Shown: positions 6,821 to 19,778, counted from the stretch's first letter. The stretch is DNA of 64,000 bases from Dehalococcoidia bacterium (GCA_009779255.1 WREQ01000001.1:5190-69189); one strand, 5' to 3'. The notes: a model not told the origin generated them from the sequence alone. Translations and numbers: made by a program.

Positions 6821-7120
6821 CTATGTCTTGCTGGGCTGACGGCGGCGGCGCTTCCAGCCCAACATGACCAGCAGTTCGCCGACCGCAGCGTCGCTGGTCT
6901 CGTCTGCAAGCGGCATGTCGGGATGTATGGTGTACTTGTTGCGACGCCCGACTTTGGTTTTGGTGATATAGCCCGCTTCTTCCAGGTCAAGAATGAGTTT
7001 GTGGGCGGTTCTTTCGGTGACGCCCACAGTATCACCAATCTCCCGTGCCGTGCTGCGGGGATATTTGGCAACTGTAGCCAGCACCAACCCGTGGGTCGTA
7101 ATGAAAGACCAGTCAGACAT
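6821..7120 (-). CDS. small winged-helix DNA-binding protein (ArsR/MarR-like)
   Basis: 99 aa. STAREIGDTVGVTERTAHKLILDLEEAGYITK is a clear HTH plus wing. The C-terminus is basic. Confidence 0.7.
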   Translation of the reverse strand: MSDWSFITTHGLVLATVAKYPRSTAREIGDTVGVTERTAHKLILDLEEAGYITKTKVGRRNKYTIHPDMPLADETSDAAVGELLVMLGWKRRRRQPSKT

Positions 7121-7229
7121 AATTTTCGGTTGTAAAAGACGAATGTTATTTCCGGTATCGTCTTTCTACCCTGTGCGACTAGTTTCGCACAATTAAGTCA
7201 GTCGCGTCAAGTACAGGGCTTTCGATATG

Positions 7230-7793
7230 CTACCCTTCGCTGATGGCGACACTGTTTATTACCGGTGGCGTTTGTGGCCGGCTCATCTCGCCGCCGGCAT
7301 AGGTAACAGGCACGGAGGCAATTTTCATCACCACATCCATGCCATCCACCACTTTGCCAAACTGGGTGTAGTTGGGCTGACTATCCAGAAAACGCGCATC
7401 GGGGCCGGTGCAGATAAAGAACTGACTGCCGTTTGTGTCGGGGCCGGCGTTGGCCATGGCCAATATTCCAACATCATAAGGATGTTTGACAGGCAACTCG
7501 TCGGCAAAACGGTAGCCCGGTCCGCCGCGGCCTGTGCCTTCGGGGTCGCCGCCCTGGATCATGAAAGTTTTGATGATACGGTGAAAAACGACGCCGTCGT
7601 AGAATTTTTGTTTTGCCAGGAACACAAAATTATTTGCCGTCAGGGGCGATTCCGAGGCAAACAGCTCAACCTTGAAACTCCCCAAGCTGGTGTCAAAAGT
7701 CGCGGTATATGTTTTGGCGCTGTCGATAATCATGGCTGGAGGGGTGTTCCAGTTTTTGGCGTTACCGGTATCCTGATTATTAATCGTCATCAC
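7230..7793 (-). CDS. ppiB: cyclophilin-type peptidyl-prolyl cis-trans isomerase (cytoplasmic form)
   Basis: 187 aa with FHRIIKTFMIQGGDP and GSQFFI cyclophilin motifs. No signal peptide. Confidence 0.92.
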   Translation of the reverse strand: MMTINNQDTGNAKNWNTPPAMIIDSAKTYTATFDTSLGSFKVELFASESPLTANNFVFLAKQKFYDGVVFHRIIKTFMIQGGDPEGTGRGGPGYRFADELPVKHPYDVGILAMANAGPDTNGSQFFICTGPDARFLDSQPNYTQFGKVVDGMDVVMKIASVPVTYAGGEMSRPQTPPVINSVAISEG

Positions 7794-7805
7794 TGCTCCT
7801 GTATG

Positions 7806-8429
7806 TTAGATTTCTTCAATGGTGATCGAATTGATAACGGGAGGGTCTATCGGGCGGCTATGTTCTCCGCTGGCACTAGCGCCAACCTCTACCCCAGCTA
7901 TCTGCATCACCACATCCATGCCTTCCACTACCCTGCCGAACTGGGTGTAAACAGGGTTGCGGTTGAGTGCCGTACCGGTACAGATGAAGAACTGGCTGCC
8001 TGCAGAATTTGGTTCGTTCTTGTTGGCCATGGCAATAATCCCGGGGTCGTAAGGATGTTTAATCGGCAGTTCGTCGGGTATGGTGTACCCGGGGCCACCG
8101 ATGCCGATGCCGGTGGGATCTCCACTCTGAATCATGAAAGTCTCCATGATTCGGTGAAAAATGACGCCGTCGTAGAATTTCTGTTTTGCCAGGAACACAA
8201 AGTTATTTACTGTTTGAGGCGATTCGGAGGCAAACAGCTCAACTTTGAAACTCCCCAGGCTGGTGTCAAAAATCGCATAGTAGGTTCGTGATTGATCAAT
8301 CTGCATTTCAGGAGGCGCCGTCCACTGCAAGGTGGAATCGGAGGTCTTTGATGTACAGCCGGCCATAGGCGCGACTAACACTGACACGGTCAGCAGGGCA
8401 AGGCATAACTTGTAAATTCGCTGTTTCAT
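7806..8429 (-). CDS. cyclophilin-type peptidyl-prolyl isomerase, predicted lipoprotein
   Basis: ORF 7806..8471. The preferred start is MKQRIYKLCLALLTVSVLVAPMAGC (signal peptide plus lipobox Cys). FHRIMETFMIQSGDP and GSQFFI motifs are present. Start is uncertain by 14 codons. Confidence 0.88.
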   Translation of the reverse strand: MKQRIYKLCLALLTVSVLVAPMAGCTSKTSDSTLQWTAPPEMQIDQSRTYYAIFDTSLGSFKVELFASESPQTVNNFVFLAKQKFYDGVIFHRIMETFMIQSGDPTGIGIGGPGYTIPDELPIKHPYDPGIIAMANKNEPNSAGSQFFICTGTALNRNPVYTQFGRVVEGMDVVMQIAGVEVGASASGEHSRPIDPPVINSITIEEI

Positions 8430-15362: not shown

Positions 15363-16178
15363 TTGAAGTACAAAATGGCAGTTATTGATGTCGATGGGAC
15401 ACTGGTGAACAGTGAGGGGAATATCTCTGAAGAGGATAAGCTGGCTGTCAAACGTTTGCAGAAATCGTACGTGGAGGTGGTTCTGTGTACCGGACGCAGC
15501 GCCAAATCCACATTGCCTGTCATTACAGGATTGGGTTTGAAGAGTTTTCATATCTTCTGCGACGGCGCGCTGATATACAATCACACCAGCGCCGCCACCG
15601 CGTTCTCCCGGCCACTCGAACCCGCGACTGTCCGCGAAGCCGTAGATTTTTGCCGTAAAAACAATCTCTATCTGGAGTTGTACTCGACCATGAAGCTCTT
15701 CGCCGAAAAGCCGAACTCGTCTGACGAAATAAATCACAGCTTTTTCGGCGTGAATCCCGAATTCGTCAACTTTGATGATATTCTGGACAAAGAACCCTTG
15801 CTGAAGGCTGAGATGCTTATTCGCAACAAAGAGGACGCCGCCAGAGTCAAACTGTTCAAGGATAATTTTGGAGACACTTTCAATTACTCGGTCGCGCACT
15901 CTCCGGCCTATCCGGATGTGGATTTCGTCAACATTCTGCATCCGCAGGTTTCAAAAGGCGCGGCGGTCAAAAAAATAATGACGGACTACGGCTATCTGCC
16001 GGCGGAAGTCATCGCCATCGGGGATGGCCTGAACGACATCTCTATGCTGGAAGCTGTTGGGGCATCAGTGGCCATGGGAAACGCCTTCGACGAAGTTAAA
16101 AAGGTCGCCAACTACATCACGGAAACAGTCGATAATCACGGCGTGGCTTCTGCTATAAACTTCTTCTTCCCCGTGTAG
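15363..16178 (+). CDS. Cof-type HAD-IIB phosphatase
   Basis: 271 aa with VIDVDGTL (motif I), CTGRS and GDGLNDISM (motif IV). TTG start lies 7 nt after GGAGG. Confidence 0.88.
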   Translation: MKYKMAVIDVDGTLVNSEGNISEEDKLAVKRLQKSYVEVVLCTGRSAKSTLPVITGLGLKSFHIFCDGALIYNHTSAATAFSRPLEPATVREAVDFCRKNNLYLELYSTMKLFAEKPNSSDEINHSFFGVNPEFVNFDDILDKEPLLKAEMLIRNKEDAARVKLFKDNFGDTFNYSVAHSPAYPDVDFVNILHPQVSKGAAVKKIMTDYGYLPAEVIAIGDGLNDISMLEAVGASVAMGNAFDEVKKVANYITETVDNHGVASAINFFFPV

Positions 16179-16273
16179 GAGTTGTTGACATAATCAACGT
16201 TATGGCATAGCAAGTATTCTCTTGCCGAAGAGTCAACAATAGCATATCGGTCCGCCGTATTCGCAACGTAAAA

Positions 16274-16300
16274 GGAGCCGCTCAAGCGGCTCCTTTTTTT
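16274..16300 (+). terminator. rho-independent terminator after the Cof gene; insulates the downstream cassette
   Basis: GGAGCCGC tcaa GCGGCTCC gives an 8-bp stem, followed by TTTTTTT. It is preceded by an A-run, so it is potentially bidirectional. Confidence 0.88.
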
Positions 16301-16358
16301 ATATGATGCCGTAATACCGCATATAACCATCATCAGCGTAACAACCCTGAAAATTATG

Positions 16359-16387
16359 TTGACAATGTTCCACACTGGTGATACGAT
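16359..16387 (+). promoter_or_regulatory. sigma70-like promoter with extended -10 for the 16422-18858 cassette
   Basis: TTGACA (16359-16364), a 17-nt spacer, then TGaTACGAT (TG at 16379-16380, -10 at 16382-16387). It lies about 35 nt upstream of the P1 start. Confidence 0.6.
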
Positions 16388-16421
16388 ACCCCCAAAATAA
16401 ACCTTGAAAGGGGAATTGAAA

Positions 16422-17339
16422 ATGTCACAGCCGGGAAAAGAACTATCCAGCATTGATTTCAGGAACCTTATCGGTGGACCGCTTGTCGCTGTGGTGGAGG
16501 CTCAGGCTCAGGCCGCGCTCAGCACGGTGAACTTCATCCGCGAAGTCGGCTTCAAGCAACCGGTGAAAGATACGGGCGACAAGGCCGAAGACCTGCCCAC
16601 GACCGGTGAGCCGATCTATGTGGTCTTCAAATATCCCAAAGAGGTTTCTCCCTATTCGCCAGCAGTTCCTTATTCCATTTCCGTTAATGTAACAACGTCG
16701 GGAAGCGGATACACGAGTCCCAGTGTCACTTTTAACAAACCAACCGGCACTGGTACCGCTGCGGCCACCGCAACCGTAGAAAAAGACGAGGATGGCAAAA
16801 TCACCGGAATCGTAATGACTAGCCTTGGCGCGGGGTACACCGCAGAAAAACCGCCGACTGTCACCATCAGCGACCCGCCTGCAGGCGGAACCAAGGCTGT
16901 ACTCAGCGTCAACTTCACCCCTCCGCAGAATCCGGTACCCGCCGTATTCCAGGAAATGAAGCTGGAAGTACCCATGCTTTCAATAGTGCCCATCCCCTAC
17001 CTGCGCGTGGATGAAGTCACCATCGACTTCAACGCCAAAATCAACTCCATGCAGACCTACGAACACAGCAGATCCTACGGGGTCACTACGGACACCTCCA
17101 CATCGGCCAAAGGTGGTTTCTTCTTCGCCAAAGCCTCGGCTTCCTTCAAGTGCTCCACCGCCTATCAGAGCAACTCCAAGTCCACCGGCCAGGTGGAAAG
17201 AACCTACTCTCTCGCAATTCATGTCAGAGCGGTTCAGGATGAGCTGCCGGGTGGCATGGAGAAGATCTTGGGCATTCTTGAAGACGCCATCAAAACGCAG
17301 CCTTCCGGTGCGCCAAAAGAAACCGTACTAACCACATAA
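16422..17339 (+). CDS. hypothetical protein P1: DUF2589-like (family recalled from memory) with an inserted GxGYT-repeat module
   Basis: ATG at 16422 follows an AAAGGGGA SD. N-terminal LIGGPLVAVVEAQAQAALSTVNFIREVGF, C-terminal-half VPMLSIVPIPYLRVDEVTIDF and ERTYSLAIHVRAV. The central 'SGSGYTSPSVTF...LGAGYTAEKPPTVTI' insert sits between them. No catalytic or TM motifs were seen. Confidence 0.75.
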   Translation: MSQPGKELSSIDFRNLIGGPLVAVVEAQAQAALSTVNFIREVGFKQPVKDTGDKAEDLPTTGEPIYVVFKYPKEVSPYSPAVPYSISVNVTTSGSGYTSPSVTFNKPTGTGTAAATATVEKDEDGKITGIVMTSLGAGYTAEKPPTVTISDPPAGGTKAVLSVNFTPPQNPVPAVFQEMKLEVPMLSIVPIPYLRVDEVTIDFNAKINSMQTYEHSRSYGVTTDTSTSAKGGFFFAKASASFKCSTAYQSNSKSTGQVERTYSLAIHVRAVQDELPGGMEKILGILEDAIKTQPSGAPKETVLTT

Positions 17340-17435
17340 ATCGCATTGTTAATGTAAAATAGGTTGTTCATCGCTGCGGGGCGTCCATTATCGTATGCCC
17401 CGCGGCGATGGAACACGTTTAATGGAGGAGCTGTT

Positions 17436-18251
17436 TTGCCGAATCTTTCAGAATTTTTAGGCGCTATCGTACAAGAGACCGCCAGGGCAAGAATGCTGAT
17501 GGATCTCGCATCGGTCCGCATCGCCGAGGCCTATTATCAGGACATGTATCTCAAACATCTTTCCGTCCCGCATTTTAAAATGCCAGAGGTGACGGTGGAA
17601 ATGCCAGTGGCGATTGTGCAGGTCAATTCGCCCGGCAGCAACGTGACGAACAGCAAGTTATTGACCGAGATTAAAAAGCGCGTCACCAGCGATCTGGGCA
17701 ATCTCATGCCGCGCGTCTTGGTCACAATACAGGACTCCGCGACGCCGGTCAAAACGATGACCTTGCGTTCGTTGCCCACCCGCGCCGCCACGCTGAGCAG
17801 TCTGAAGGGAGCAGAGTTGAGCGCGCGCACAAAGACTACCAGTAAGACTATTGTTGACATCGTGTTCAAAAATGCGTCCCCGAACACGGATGGGTATAAC
17901 ATGCCAATCCGGCTGACGCGTTTGGCCGACGATCTGGAGTTGTCCCTGTCGCGGGAACTGACCACGAATTATCGGGATTACTTCGTGGATAACAAAGGCA
18001 ACCTTGATCAGCAAGCCGTCGATGGTGTGCTGCGTTTGGCCAGAGAGTCGTTTTTCGACAGCGTCACGTCGATTATGGAAAAAGAGGAAACGACGGTCGA
18101 GATCATCGGCAACACCTCGGCGTTGATTGGCACCAGCGATACGAAATATATGACCGTGGTCAAGATGACCCTGCGTGAGCAGGATTTCGAATGGAAGCTG
18201 GGTGAAAAAGACGACAACGGCATCGAGGAACGTCATCTTACCATTGAGTGA
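17436..18251 (+). CDS. hypothetical protein P2 (possible remote paralogue of P1)
   Basis: ORF 17364..18251. The preferred TTG start at 17436 lies 5 nt after GGAGGAG. LSEFLGAIVQETARARML... helix followed by SVPHFKMPEVTVEMPVAI echoes the P1 helix and VP...DEVTIDF elements. No known motifs. Confidence 0.7.
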   Translation: MPNLSEFLGAIVQETARARMLMDLASVRIAEAYYQDMYLKHLSVPHFKMPEVTVEMPVAIVQVNSPGSNVTNSKLLTEIKKRVTSDLGNLMPRVLVTIQDSATPVKTMTLRSLPTRAATLSSLKGAELSARTKTTSKTIVDIVFKNASPNTDGYNMPIRLTRLADDLELSLSRELTTNYRDYFVDNKGNLDQQAVDGVLRLARESFFDSVTSIMEKEETTVEIIGNTSALIGTSDTKYMTVVKMTLREQDFEWKLGEKDDNGIEERHLTIE

Positions 18252-18273
18252 CATTGAAAGGGGAGGATGATCG

Positions 18274-18858
18274 TTGATTCTCTATACGGTGCTGGCGGAA
18301 CTGGACGGTATTCTGGCCGAAACCGCTTCGTTGGTTGACCTCTATAAAAATAAGGAGCTTTCGTTTTACGACAAATCCATGAAATGGCTGGAGCGGCTTG
18401 AAAAGCTTGCGGATGAAAACCGCTGGGTCATCAAGGCCGAAATAGCCTCGTTGCGCGGCAGGATCATCACCGCTTCCCGTATGCAGGCAGATGACACCTT
18501 CAGCTGGATGCCCATGTCCAAAAACCGCCGCCGTGCAAAGGATGCGCTGACCGCCGAATGCATCAATATCGCGGTCAGCCGCTCGGTGGACTTCGTGCAA
18601 AAGGACAGGGAGCTGCAAAACGAAGCGGCCAATATATTGAGGCAGGTTCTATCGGTAGCCATTTCCAAAGGCTTGGTGGAACCACGTCCAAGCGCGGCCG
18701 TTGACAGCAGTTTTATAACCCACAGCTGGCGCGCGGCGGCATCCGACCAAGAGTTGGCCAAGATGTGCGCGCACGTGGTCGGGCTTATCGGGGCGTATAA
18801 CGCGTATATATTGTTCGACAAGGCCTTTGGGGATATTTTTATCAACGGCCACTGTTGA
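18274..18858 (+). CDS. hypothetical protein P3 (predicted mostly helical, unknown function)
   Basis: 194 aa. TTG start lies 5 nt after GGGGAGGA and 22 nt after the P2 stop, which suggests translational coupling. No recognisable family. Confidence 0.65.
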   Translation: MILYTVLAELDGILAETASLVDLYKNKELSFYDKSMKWLERLEKLADENRWVIKAEIASLRGRIITASRMQADDTFSWMPMSKNRRRAKDALTAECINIAVSRSVDFVQKDRELQNEAANILRQVLSVAISKGLVEPRPSAAVDSSFITHSWRAAASDQELAKMCAHVVGLIGAYNAYILFDKAFGDIFINGHC

Positions 18859-19066: not shown

Positions 19067-19095
19067 TTGACAATAGCTGTATATAGTGCTATTTT
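19067..19095 (+). promoter_or_regulatory. candidate sigma70-like promoter with extended -10 for the lipoprotein gene
   Basis: TTGACA (19067-19072), a 17-nt spacer, then TGcTATTTT (19087-19095). Confidence 0.45.
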
Positions 19096-19187
19096 GAAGA
19101 AGAACTAAGGGATAGTATCACAGTTATGGAGACCATCGGGCATAAAACTTGGGAATCGTCAATCCTGCATCTGTCAGGGAAAATTGA

Positions 19188-19778
19188 ATGAAAAAACTGA
19201 TGCCACTCCTTGTCGCCTTTCTTGTCGCGCTAACATTGCCAATATCATGTAATAGCGCCACAACACCTAGTGAGGCCGGATTTCTTCTTAATGTCACGGC
19301 TGGACCGGGAGGTACTGTTCAGTCTGAAGTCAACGGGACATATTCCCCCAGAGAACAAATTGAGATAACCGCCTACCCAGATCATGGATTCTCATTCTAT
19401 AGATGGGTTGTCTATTCAGCTGATTCTAGTGGTCCATGGTTGTTCAAAAATCAAAACCCGGCTCGGTTTGCAATACAATGGAATTTAGACATTGTAGCTA
19501 CGTTCAAAGAGACGAGTGAACTGTTTTTTCTATCCATTGTCGATGGGCCGCACGGCGGAATCCCAGCCGGAGGGGCATCAATCTATAGCGGCAATTACCT
19601 TGCAGGAGAAGTAATAGCAGGGCTAATCGTACGCCCTAATCCTGGATGGTCGTTTGAAAGGTGGGTTATATTCTCAAGAGATTTTGAGATCATGGGAACT
19701 ATTGAGCACGGCGTTGACACATTTGTCATGCCTTCATACGACGTGATTCTAGTAGCTGAATATAAAGAAGCATCATAA
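19188..19778 (+). CDS. predicted lipoprotein with two divergent InlB B-repeat-like beta domains
   Basis: MKKLMPLLVAFLVALTLPISC gives a signal peptide and lipobox. Two ~80-aa repeats each carry a GG(T/I)...Y..GE.I...A.P..G(F/W)SF.RW pattern. The gene is visibly AT-richer than its flanks. Confidence 0.7.
   Translation: MKKLMPLLVAFLVALTLPISCNSATTPSEAGFLLNVTAGPGGTVQSEVNGTYSPREQIEITAYPDHGFSFYRWVVYSADSSGPWLFKNQNPARFAIQWNLDIVATFKETSELFFLSIVDGPHGGIPAGGASIYSGNYLAGEVIAGLIVRPNPGWSFERWVIFSRDFEIMGTIEHGVDTFVMPSYDVILVAEYKEAS

Follow-up and report, generated by a model that had tools for sequence, protein, structure and literature searches.

Which kind of cellular system can be built from three co-directional genes that lie among housekeeping genes and whose products carry no recognisable P-loop, nuclease, protease, helix-turn-helix (HTH) or transmembrane signature? 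This question is raised by a cassette of three genes, here called P1, P2 and P3, at positions 16359-18858 of a 64,000-nucleotide (nt) stretch of DNA from a Dehalococcoidia bacterium (GCA_009779255.1 WREQ01000001.1:5190-69189); the whole stretch is referred to below as the window, and positions are counted from its first letter. An earlier note, made from the sequence alone, had singled the cassette out as a non-enzymatic, probably self-assembling module with a structural, envelope-associated or defence-related role. The analysis presented here supports that interpretation overall; two of the outcomes that the note had named as refuting it, confident matches to a characterised system and a lack of conserved co-occurrence, were looked for and did not turn up. 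P1-P2-P3 is a conserved, non-enzymatic and undescribed module, a conclusion that we regard as solid. Most likely it builds a protein assembly, possibly a membrane pore, which makes it a promising candidate for a cellular system not yet described. The finding itself is real, and the mechanism discussed for it is inferential.

That the three genes belong together, which the earlier note had left to a comparison with other genomes, is borne out by their co-occurrence. A scan with the P1 alignment found a P1 relative in 434 of 185,579 species genomes; the best 80 of the loci with such relatives were fetched from these, and 88 loci in all, 81 of them after dereplication, were compared. In 83 of the 88 loci of this set, retrieved through P1 and scored with hidden Markov models (HMMs) of P2 and P3, both of the latter genes directly follow P1, in this order and co-directionally. 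Of the five others, four are cut off by the end of a contig, and the fifth carries an unscored open reading frame (ORF) of 183 amino acids (aa) 3 nt after P2. Retrieval through P3 placed P2 upstream in 8 of 8 cases and P1 upstream in 4 of 4 where the contig reaches that far; this search used an alignment of the close P3 clade, the broad P3 alignment being too divergent for a metagenome scan. When the flanking ORFs were clustered, only the trio genes proved to be conserved (81, 81 and 77 of the 81 dereplicated loci). A fourth conserved gene was considered and rejected, the apparent extra clusters being antisense ORFs that overlap P1.

The loci span at least 12 bacterial phyla together with Methanothrix and Methanosarcinaceae. 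Bacterial hosts are found in Bacillota (including Anaeroplasmataceae), Desulfobacterota, Myxococcota, Gamma-, Beta- and Zetaproteobacteria, Campylobacterota, Bacteroidota, Ignavibacteria, Gemmatimonadota, Acidobacteriota, Actinomycetota, Chloroflexota and Planctomycetota. Identity across phyla and domains holds at about 50% for P1 but declines to 21-27% for P2 and P3, which makes P1 the most constrained of the three proteins at the sequence level. Such P1 identity across phyla and domains, combined with a sporadic distribution, implies horizontal transfer. Several hosts, namely Anaeroplasmataceae, Methanothrix and Methanosarcinaceae (L077, L085, L086 and L088, where L numbers denote individual loci of the set), have no murein, and Dehalococcoidia, the source of the window, presumably lack a murein wall as well. 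Since the trio is present in murein-less hosts, its core function cannot depend on peptidoglycan.

The non-enzymatic character proposed in the earlier note fits the conservation patterns. At least 90% conservation is reached by 46 residues of P1 (82 sequences), by 12 residues of P2, mainly in its N-terminal helix and PxP motif and with no motif of catalytic type among them, and by no residue of P3; neither family searches nor this residue conservation, taken over 78-82 homologues, revealed a catalytic signature in any of the three. The absence of P-loop, nuclease, protease, HTH and transmembrane signatures held up as well, as searches of Pfam, NCBIfam, PADLOC and PHROGs gave no significant match apart from the family DUF2589 and a decoration-type domain, both in P1. 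No signal peptide or transmembrane helix was found in P1-P3, the highest 19-residue Kyte-Doolittle means being 1.33, 0.71 and 1.26. For the DUF2589 core, P2 and P3, no confident match to a characterised system emerged from the four profile libraries, the PDB or Foldseek, the last run with the models of P1 and P2; the PDB was searched by sequence both with the individual proteins and with profiles built from 17-120 sequences, and nothing was returned.

P1 is a member of DUF2589 (PF11655), as the earlier note had suggested: the Pfam search gave an expectation value (E) of 8.3e-25 and 88.4 bits, the gathering cut-off being 23. The protein has more than 1293 homologues. It shares with the family the GGPL..AQ N-terminal helix, the VPxLxxxPIPxxR motif and the C-terminal QDEMPxG helix, and its conserved blocks read F..GGPL.A..AQ....FI..VGF in the N-terminal helix, P.YV.FKYPK, VP.L...PIP..R and, at the C-terminus, A.QDE.P.G...L..LE. 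P1 differs from the family in an insert of about 80 residues, a phage-type beta domain that parts the PF11655 match into two stretches. The AlphaFold2 (AF2) model, with a predicted local distance difference test score (pLDDT) of 72, begins with a long helix, continues with the well-folded insert and a beta-hairpin of great length, and ends in a C-terminal helix; Foldseek matched this model of moderate quality to no PDB entry at E <=1, the best hit having E 1.3. The insert is the sole part of P1 that resembles anything named. It matches phage virion proteins in PHROGs (E 2e-7 to 1e-4), structures in BFVD by Foldseek (rmsd 1.6-2.2 Å, 35-42% identity) and the tailspike Dpo31 (E 1e-3), its PHROGs and BFVD relatives being tail-fibre, baseplate and P22 gp10-like proteins. 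Many P1 homologues of 217 aa, including the archaeal P1, do without it. Unlike the phage decoration domains, it is dispensable to the architecture and does not form the system's core. DUF2589 is uncharacterised in function and structure, and membership therefore explains nothing mechanistic; the literature holds passing mentions of DUF2589 only, and nothing was found there for PF11655, PF27375 or AF_0414.

P2 is probably a very distant DUF2589 paralogue of P1, a relationship that is moderately supported by profile comparison. No match was found for P2 itself in a Pfam copy lacking the PF27375 model or in NCBIfam, PADLOC or PHROGs, none of the 82 P2 sequences reached Pfam DUF2589 at E <=0.1, and a Pfam scan of the 82 homologues gave no recurrent weak family. 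An hhalign comparison of the 82 P2 sequences with the P1 core reported a probability of 57% and E 1e-4, aligning the N-terminal helix and the PxP-strand motif, in which '..LKh.PVPRF..veldvPV' of P2 is paired with 'VPiLtmlPIPfiRIeettIDF' of P1. Three P2 ORFs also match the P1 HMM weakly (E about 1e-3 to 1e-4). Precomputed matches to PF27375 (AF_0414) are recorded for 15 of 19 P2 homologues, the graded entries being only 'weak' or 'faint'. This family, itself uncharacterised, is found in A. fulgidus within the transcriptionally regulated cluster AF0414-AF0417 of 'short DUF2589-related genes'. The P2 model (pLDDT 67) has the N-terminal helix and strand of P1 and carries a four-helix insert in place of the hairpin; compared with the PDB by Foldseek, this model of moderate quality gave only myoglobin noise, at a template modelling score of 0.17. 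The N-terminus MPxLxxxLG is conserved in 82 homologues, and the TTG at 17436 is for this reason taken as the true start of P2. The public gene call (252 aa, beginning at the internal Met20) is too short.

P3 is an orphan without a family entry, as far as sequence comparison goes. It matched nothing in Pfam, NCBIfam, PADLOC, PHROGs or the PDB, and a Pfam scan of 78 homologues gave no recurrent weak family. There are 18 close homologues; the wider family comprises 320 clusters among 1.84 billion representatives, with lengths of 113-232 aa, all of them single-domain proteins, and no fusion to a known domain occurs in the 320 clusters. A relationship of P3 to P1 or P2 was rejected (hhalign probability below 1%).

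How the cassette is expressed bears on the division of labour among these proteins. The earlier note had described it as insulated, and this is so on the 5' side only. There the ORF of a Cof-type HAD hydrolase (15363-16178) is closed by the terminator that the note had reported, a 12-bp stem at 16270-16297, with 7 GC pairs and a loop of 4 nt, that runs into TTTTTTT, and the near-consensus promoter TTGACA-17-TGaTACGAT, likewise reported before, is present with its extended -10 element; of the 8 sites in this region it is one of the two that score best, shuffled sequences giving 3.8 +/- 2.1. On the 3' side no canonical terminator was found after P3, and there is a gap of 330 nt and a new promoter at 19067. 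The three ORFs are co-directional, have the lengths given in the note (305, 271 and 194 aa), are separated by spacers of 96 nt (P1-P2) and 22 nt (P2-P3), and are each preceded by a strong Shine-Dalgarno sequence of their own, that of P2 being GGAGGAG at 17424-17430 and that of P3 GGGGAGGA at 18260-18267. P1 (16401-16414) and P3 (18251-18264) have in common a near-identical 14-nt initiation context, AC[C/A]TTGAAAGGGGA; the Shine-Dalgarno site of P2 is a different one.

The spacer between P1 and P2 (17337-17440) folds with a free energy of -42 kcal/mol (z -4.4; 0 of 200 shuffles equally stable), and no T run follows the hairpin of its stem-loop, which may serve as an attenuator or as an mRNA-stabilising element. 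Among 15 related loci whose P1-P2 spacer is at least 60 nt long, 11 have a stable hairpin in the same position, with unrelated sequences, versus 24% of control regions. Between P2 and P3 the median distance across loci is 6 nt. A stem-loop after P1 and a short P2-P3 gap fit production of P1 in excess over P2 and P3. The coordinates of these elements and of the protein features discussed below are collected in Table 1.

Table 1. Features of the P1-P2-P3 cassette, in window coordinates
Feature	Position	Strand	Basis or remark
Intrinsic terminator of the upstream gene (Cof-type HAD hydrolase), delimiting the cassette on its 5' side	16270..16305	+	Stem, then T run
Sigma-70-type promoter, TTGACA, 17 nt, TGaTACGAT (extended -10)	16359..16387	+	10/12 matches
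P1 Shine-Dalgarno sequence, AAAGGGGA	16407..16414	+	Inside the 14-nt context recurring before P3
P1, 305 aa, ATG start, DUF2589 (PF11655), proposed major subunit	16422..17339	+	
P1 long N-terminal helix, residues 13-43, signature F..liGGPL.A..AQaqaa....FI..VGF	16458..16550	+	AF2 model, residues at least 90% conserved
P1 inserted beta domain, residues ~85-166, phage decoration-domain-like	16674..16919	+	pLDDT >90
P1 long beta-hairpin, residues 199-270	17016..17231	+	AF2 strands 199-216 and 253-270
P1 distal hairpin excursion, residues 217-252, amphipathic, aromatic tip	17070..17177	+	
P1-P2 intercistronic stem-loop, proposed attenuator or mRNA stabiliser	17369..17411	+	Folding energy versus shuffles
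P2, 271 aa, TTG start, probable distant DUF2589-like paralogue with helical insert	17436..18251	+	
P3, 194 aa, TTG start, orphan, probably helical, close behind P2	18274..18858	+	

The composition of the cassette is host-like, as had been judged by eye: in GC content (0.53-0.55) and in GC content at third codon positions (0.63-0.69) it cannot be told apart from dnaN, xerC and fusA, which lie in the window as well. Scans for signatures of mobile elements or riboregulators found no tRNA, flanking repeat or Rfam match at the cassette. The gene downstream (19067-19778 with its own promoter, TTGACA-17-TATTTT) has an ORF at 19188-19778 that encodes a lipoprotein-like product with a signal peptide ending in LPISC and InlB B-repeat (Flg_new_2) domains; a gene of this kind next to the trio is not conserved in other genomes.

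The absence of signal peptides and transmembrane helices, taken together with the presence of the trio in wall-less hosts, means that the target must be the cytoplasm or the cytoplasmic membrane, and the membrane is the one target that Gram-positive, Gram-negative, wall-less and archaeal hosts all share. The part of P1 that draws attention in this respect is its hairpin. Hydrophobic and polar residues alternate in every alignment column of positions 219-231 and 237-248, aromatic residues stand at both ends, and the tip reads GGFFF here and YPPLF (Y/W-P-P-L-F) or WPGGS elsewhere. The beta-moment of the hairpin exceeds that of shuffled sequences with a median z of 2.9, and z is above 2 in 90% of 82 sequences; the hairpin is the least conserved sequence of the core, yet its beta-amphipathic pattern is kept. 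Its distal excursion (212-257) is modelled at pLDDT below 50, as would be expected of a segment that takes on order only upon oligomerisation or within a membrane. Residues 199-283 gave a weak profile match (E 0.036) to the barrel-forming region of the L-ring protein FlgH.

Aerolysin/ETX-MTX2 toxins, alpha-haemolysin/leukocidin and gasdermins possess amphipathic hairpins that are rich in Ser and Thr and alternate in hydrophobicity, with a pattern that is better conserved than the sequence. P1 resembles such beta-barrel pore formers in its amphipathic hairpin, which is polar and rich in Ser and Thr, leaves a beta-sheet core and ends in an aromatic/hydrophobic tip; it measures about 2 x 12 residues, a length within the roughly 2 x 10-13 residues expected of their membrane-spanning hairpins. 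By analogy with bacterial gasdermins, P1, which has no signal peptide, would act from the cytoplasm. The similarity does not extend to homology: parasporin-2 appeared in Foldseek at rank 22 with a probability of 0.01, and the PDB profile searches were empty. The trio also differs from gasdermin systems in having no associated protease and from the toxins in having no secretion signal.

It is with some reserve, and at rather less than even confidence, that we put forward the following reading: a three-component, non-enzymatic assembly in which P1 opens the cytoplasmic membrane from within. The trio forms one strongly expressed operon, which would encode this assembly and would be horizontally mobile across Bacteria and Archaea. 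P1, as the major subunit made in excess, would form homo-oligomers by way of the PIPxxR and KYPK motifs and of the N-terminal helix, which is invariant, self-assembly being plausible, and its amphipathic hairpins would build an oligomeric beta-barrel that enters the cytoplasmic membrane from inside and leaves a pore or lesion. P2, which would keep the N-terminal assembly helix and the PxP-strand motif and have a helical domain in place of the hairpin, and P3, a putative helical partner, would be translationally coupled, evolve fast and have minor parts, serving to nucleate, cap or gate the P1 assembly. The output would be a controlled permeabilisation of the membrane, leading to holin-like release, lysis or cell death.

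The envelope-associated role that the earlier note had listed among its options finds indirect backing in a peptidoglycan peptidase of about 300 aa linked to one P1 subclade. The enzyme adjoins the trio in 10 of 81 loci (L003 at 6997-7905 on the minus strand, L011, L019, L023, L025, L026, L028, L067, L079 and L081), either as the immediately divergent gene or as a fourth co-directional one. Its N-terminal part is a PG_binding_1 domain, its C-terminal part shows the LAS/VanY-like motif SKHGxGYALD...SHVHVEF, and a signal peptide is absent. The peptidase accompanies all eight members of the subclade whose P1 is at least 68% identical to that of Kribbia, and is itself 60-70% identical across phyla; the subclade covers five phyla (Actinomycetota, Chloroflexota, Desulfobacterota/Myxococcota, Burkholderiales and Planctomycetota). 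A leaderless wall hydrolase next to the trio needs a route through the membrane, and the arrangement recalls holin-endolysin cassettes and holin/endolysin-dependent (type 10) secretion, in which endolysins without a leader likewise rely on a lesion in the membrane. The differences are equally clear: holins are small alpha-helical transmembrane proteins, whereas P1-P3 have no transmembrane helix, the trio is not phage-borne, and about 88% of the loci, including the window, lack a hydrolase.

Several observations weigh against a membrane-breaching P1. Neither Pfam nor Foldseek revealed a pore-forming family that P1 resembles in sequence or fold, although the models of P1 and P2 are mediocre, so that negative Foldseek results carry little weight. 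Amphipathic hairpins also occur in soluble beta-sandwich and tube or ring proteins, and it is hard to see what a phage-type decoration domain would do in a pore that faces the cytoplasm. Nor would one expect a lethal pore former, unless tightly gated, to be expressed from a near-consensus, constitutive promoter. The peptidase link holds in only about 12% of loci, no peptidoglycan hydrolase lies next to the trio in the window, and the majority of loci have short P1-P2 spacers without a hairpin. The wider proposal, that the trio represents a new class of leaderless, cytoplasm-acting beta-barrel membrane-breaching machine, equivalent in function to holins and gasdermins but of unrelated fold, gated by the paralogous P2 and the orphan P3, exchanged horizontally between bacteria and methanogens and coupled in some lineages to a leaderless peptidoglycan peptidase that would serve lysis or protein release, is less likely than not.

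Some of these observations are better accommodated by a soluble cytoplasmic architecture, such as a filament, tube, ring, shell or scaffold, that has no membrane action at all, the main rival explanation, to which we give only slightly less credence. P1 would then polymerise, with the hairpins forming inter-subunit sheets after the manner of tail-tube, Hcp or ring-forming proteins and the insert lying on the surface, and P2 and P3 would act as nucleator, cap or adaptor. The expression logic of a major subunit (a strong promoter, a hairpin after P1, P2 and P3 close together) suits such a structure, as do the variable surface insert of virion-structural-protein type, the extreme conservation of the P1 core and the multi-paralogue DUF2589 clusters known elsewhere; constitutive expression, too, is easier to square with a harmless structure. 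However, Foldseek matched the core model, which is of moderate quality, to no tube, sheath, capsid, encapsulin or filament fold, and comparison with encapsulin/HK97, tail-tube/Hcp and virion-like shells in the PDB and BFVD likewise produced matches of the insert only. Pattern-only conservation of the hairpin tip would be unusual for a protein-protein interface, and the co-transfer of a leaderless peptidoglycan peptidase with one subclade would be left unexplained.

The sporadic distribution with about 50% identity across phyla and domains, the self-contained cassette in unrelated neighbourhoods and the pairing of a conserved effector with divergent partners are also what anti-phage abortive infection would predict, in which fast-evolving P2 and P3 sense infection and release the conserved killer effector P1. 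This scheme overlaps with the pore, and one copy, in Kribbia, lies beside a transposon-like element; even so, we judge it unlikely, and the defence-related role envisaged in the earlier note gains no support from the neighbourhoods. Sampling of two genes on either side yielded 149 immediate neighbours from about 60 loci, and these flanking genes are unrelated to one another, falling into 167 Pfam families of which none occurs more than 4 times. PADLOC matches among them are few and mostly generic ABC/AAA ATPases, so that a defence island was rejected, in a test limited to two genes per side. P1, P2 and P3 themselves match no PADLOC-DB v2 family at E <=1, the trio neighbours are housekeeping genes (dnaN, Cof and uvrC in the window), and there is no nucleotide-signalling, nuclease or NTPase component.

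Published expression data have prompted a further possibility, that of a small regulatory or stress-response complex, for example in envelope or metabolic stress, without any higher-order assembly. In A. fulgidus the cluster AF0414-AF0417, which includes DUF2589 genes, is specifically up-regulated on lactate (PMC3949148), and in B. fragilis a DUF2589 gene is a line in a carbapenem-response expression table (PMC11402942). Both reports are without functional data, however, and the genes may belong to other DUF2589 subfamilies. P1-P3 contain no DNA-binding, sensor or enzymatic domain, and the size of P1, its beta-rich build, phage-like surface domain and extreme conservation suit a structural protein better, so that a regulatory complex appears quite unlikely. 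A prophage remnant or virion structural module is suggested by the PHROGs and BFVD matches but is effectively refuted, as these are confined to an insert that many P1 homologues lack, no phage genes lie nearby, the composition is host-like and neither a tRNA nor an att-like repeat is present. The enrichment in prophages that the earlier note had proposed to look for is thus not seen: prophage or plasmid carriage was rejected on the near-absence of the family from IMG/VR (one true P1 relative in 2.9 million contigs), from GenBank phages (one weak match, a 4-kb record, in 50,697 phage records) and from PLSDB (one distant copy).

Variant architectures of the trio were also observed. The four-gene variant of Kribbia dieselivorans is preceded, at a distance of about 3.5 kb, by genes for a resolvase, an AAA_22 ATPase and a transposase of the Mu type with rve and Mu-transpos_C domains (L003 1736-4552), and this transposon-like element may be a vehicle for horizontal spread. 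A clade of gut Clostridia (L065, L068, L071-L074, L076 and L078) has two extra genes after P3, one for a Cys/His-rich orphan of 245-264 aa that matches nothing in Pfam or the PDB and one for an HTH protein of about 110 aa of the Mga/DeoR type. Plasmid pFA8 of Fulvitalea axinellae (L091 4773-7247) encodes a P1-like DUF2589 protein with a C-terminal Ig-like extension and without the internal insert, then a P2-like protein (E 7.5e-6) and, replacing P3, a second short DUF2589 protein of 189 aa; such clustering of several paralogues is a likeness to AF0414-AF0417. In one metagenomic copy (L093 1188-2098) P1 is split over three consecutive ORFs, either by frameshifts or as a pseudogene, and P2 and P3 are intact.

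If the trio does form a membrane-breaching or self-assembling machine, it would provide the first function for DUF2589, a family uncharacterised since its Pfam entry, and would define two partner families, one of them without any family entry. Opening of the cell's own membrane in prokaryotes would gain an architecture unrelated to holins, gasdermins and known beta-pore formers, in the form of a compact three-gene tool that serves Gram-positive, Gram-negative, wall-less and archaeal cells and marks gene flow across domains. Under the more conservative reading, that of a new cytoplasmic assembly, P1-P2-P3 would still be a small and experimentally tractable system with clear predictions.

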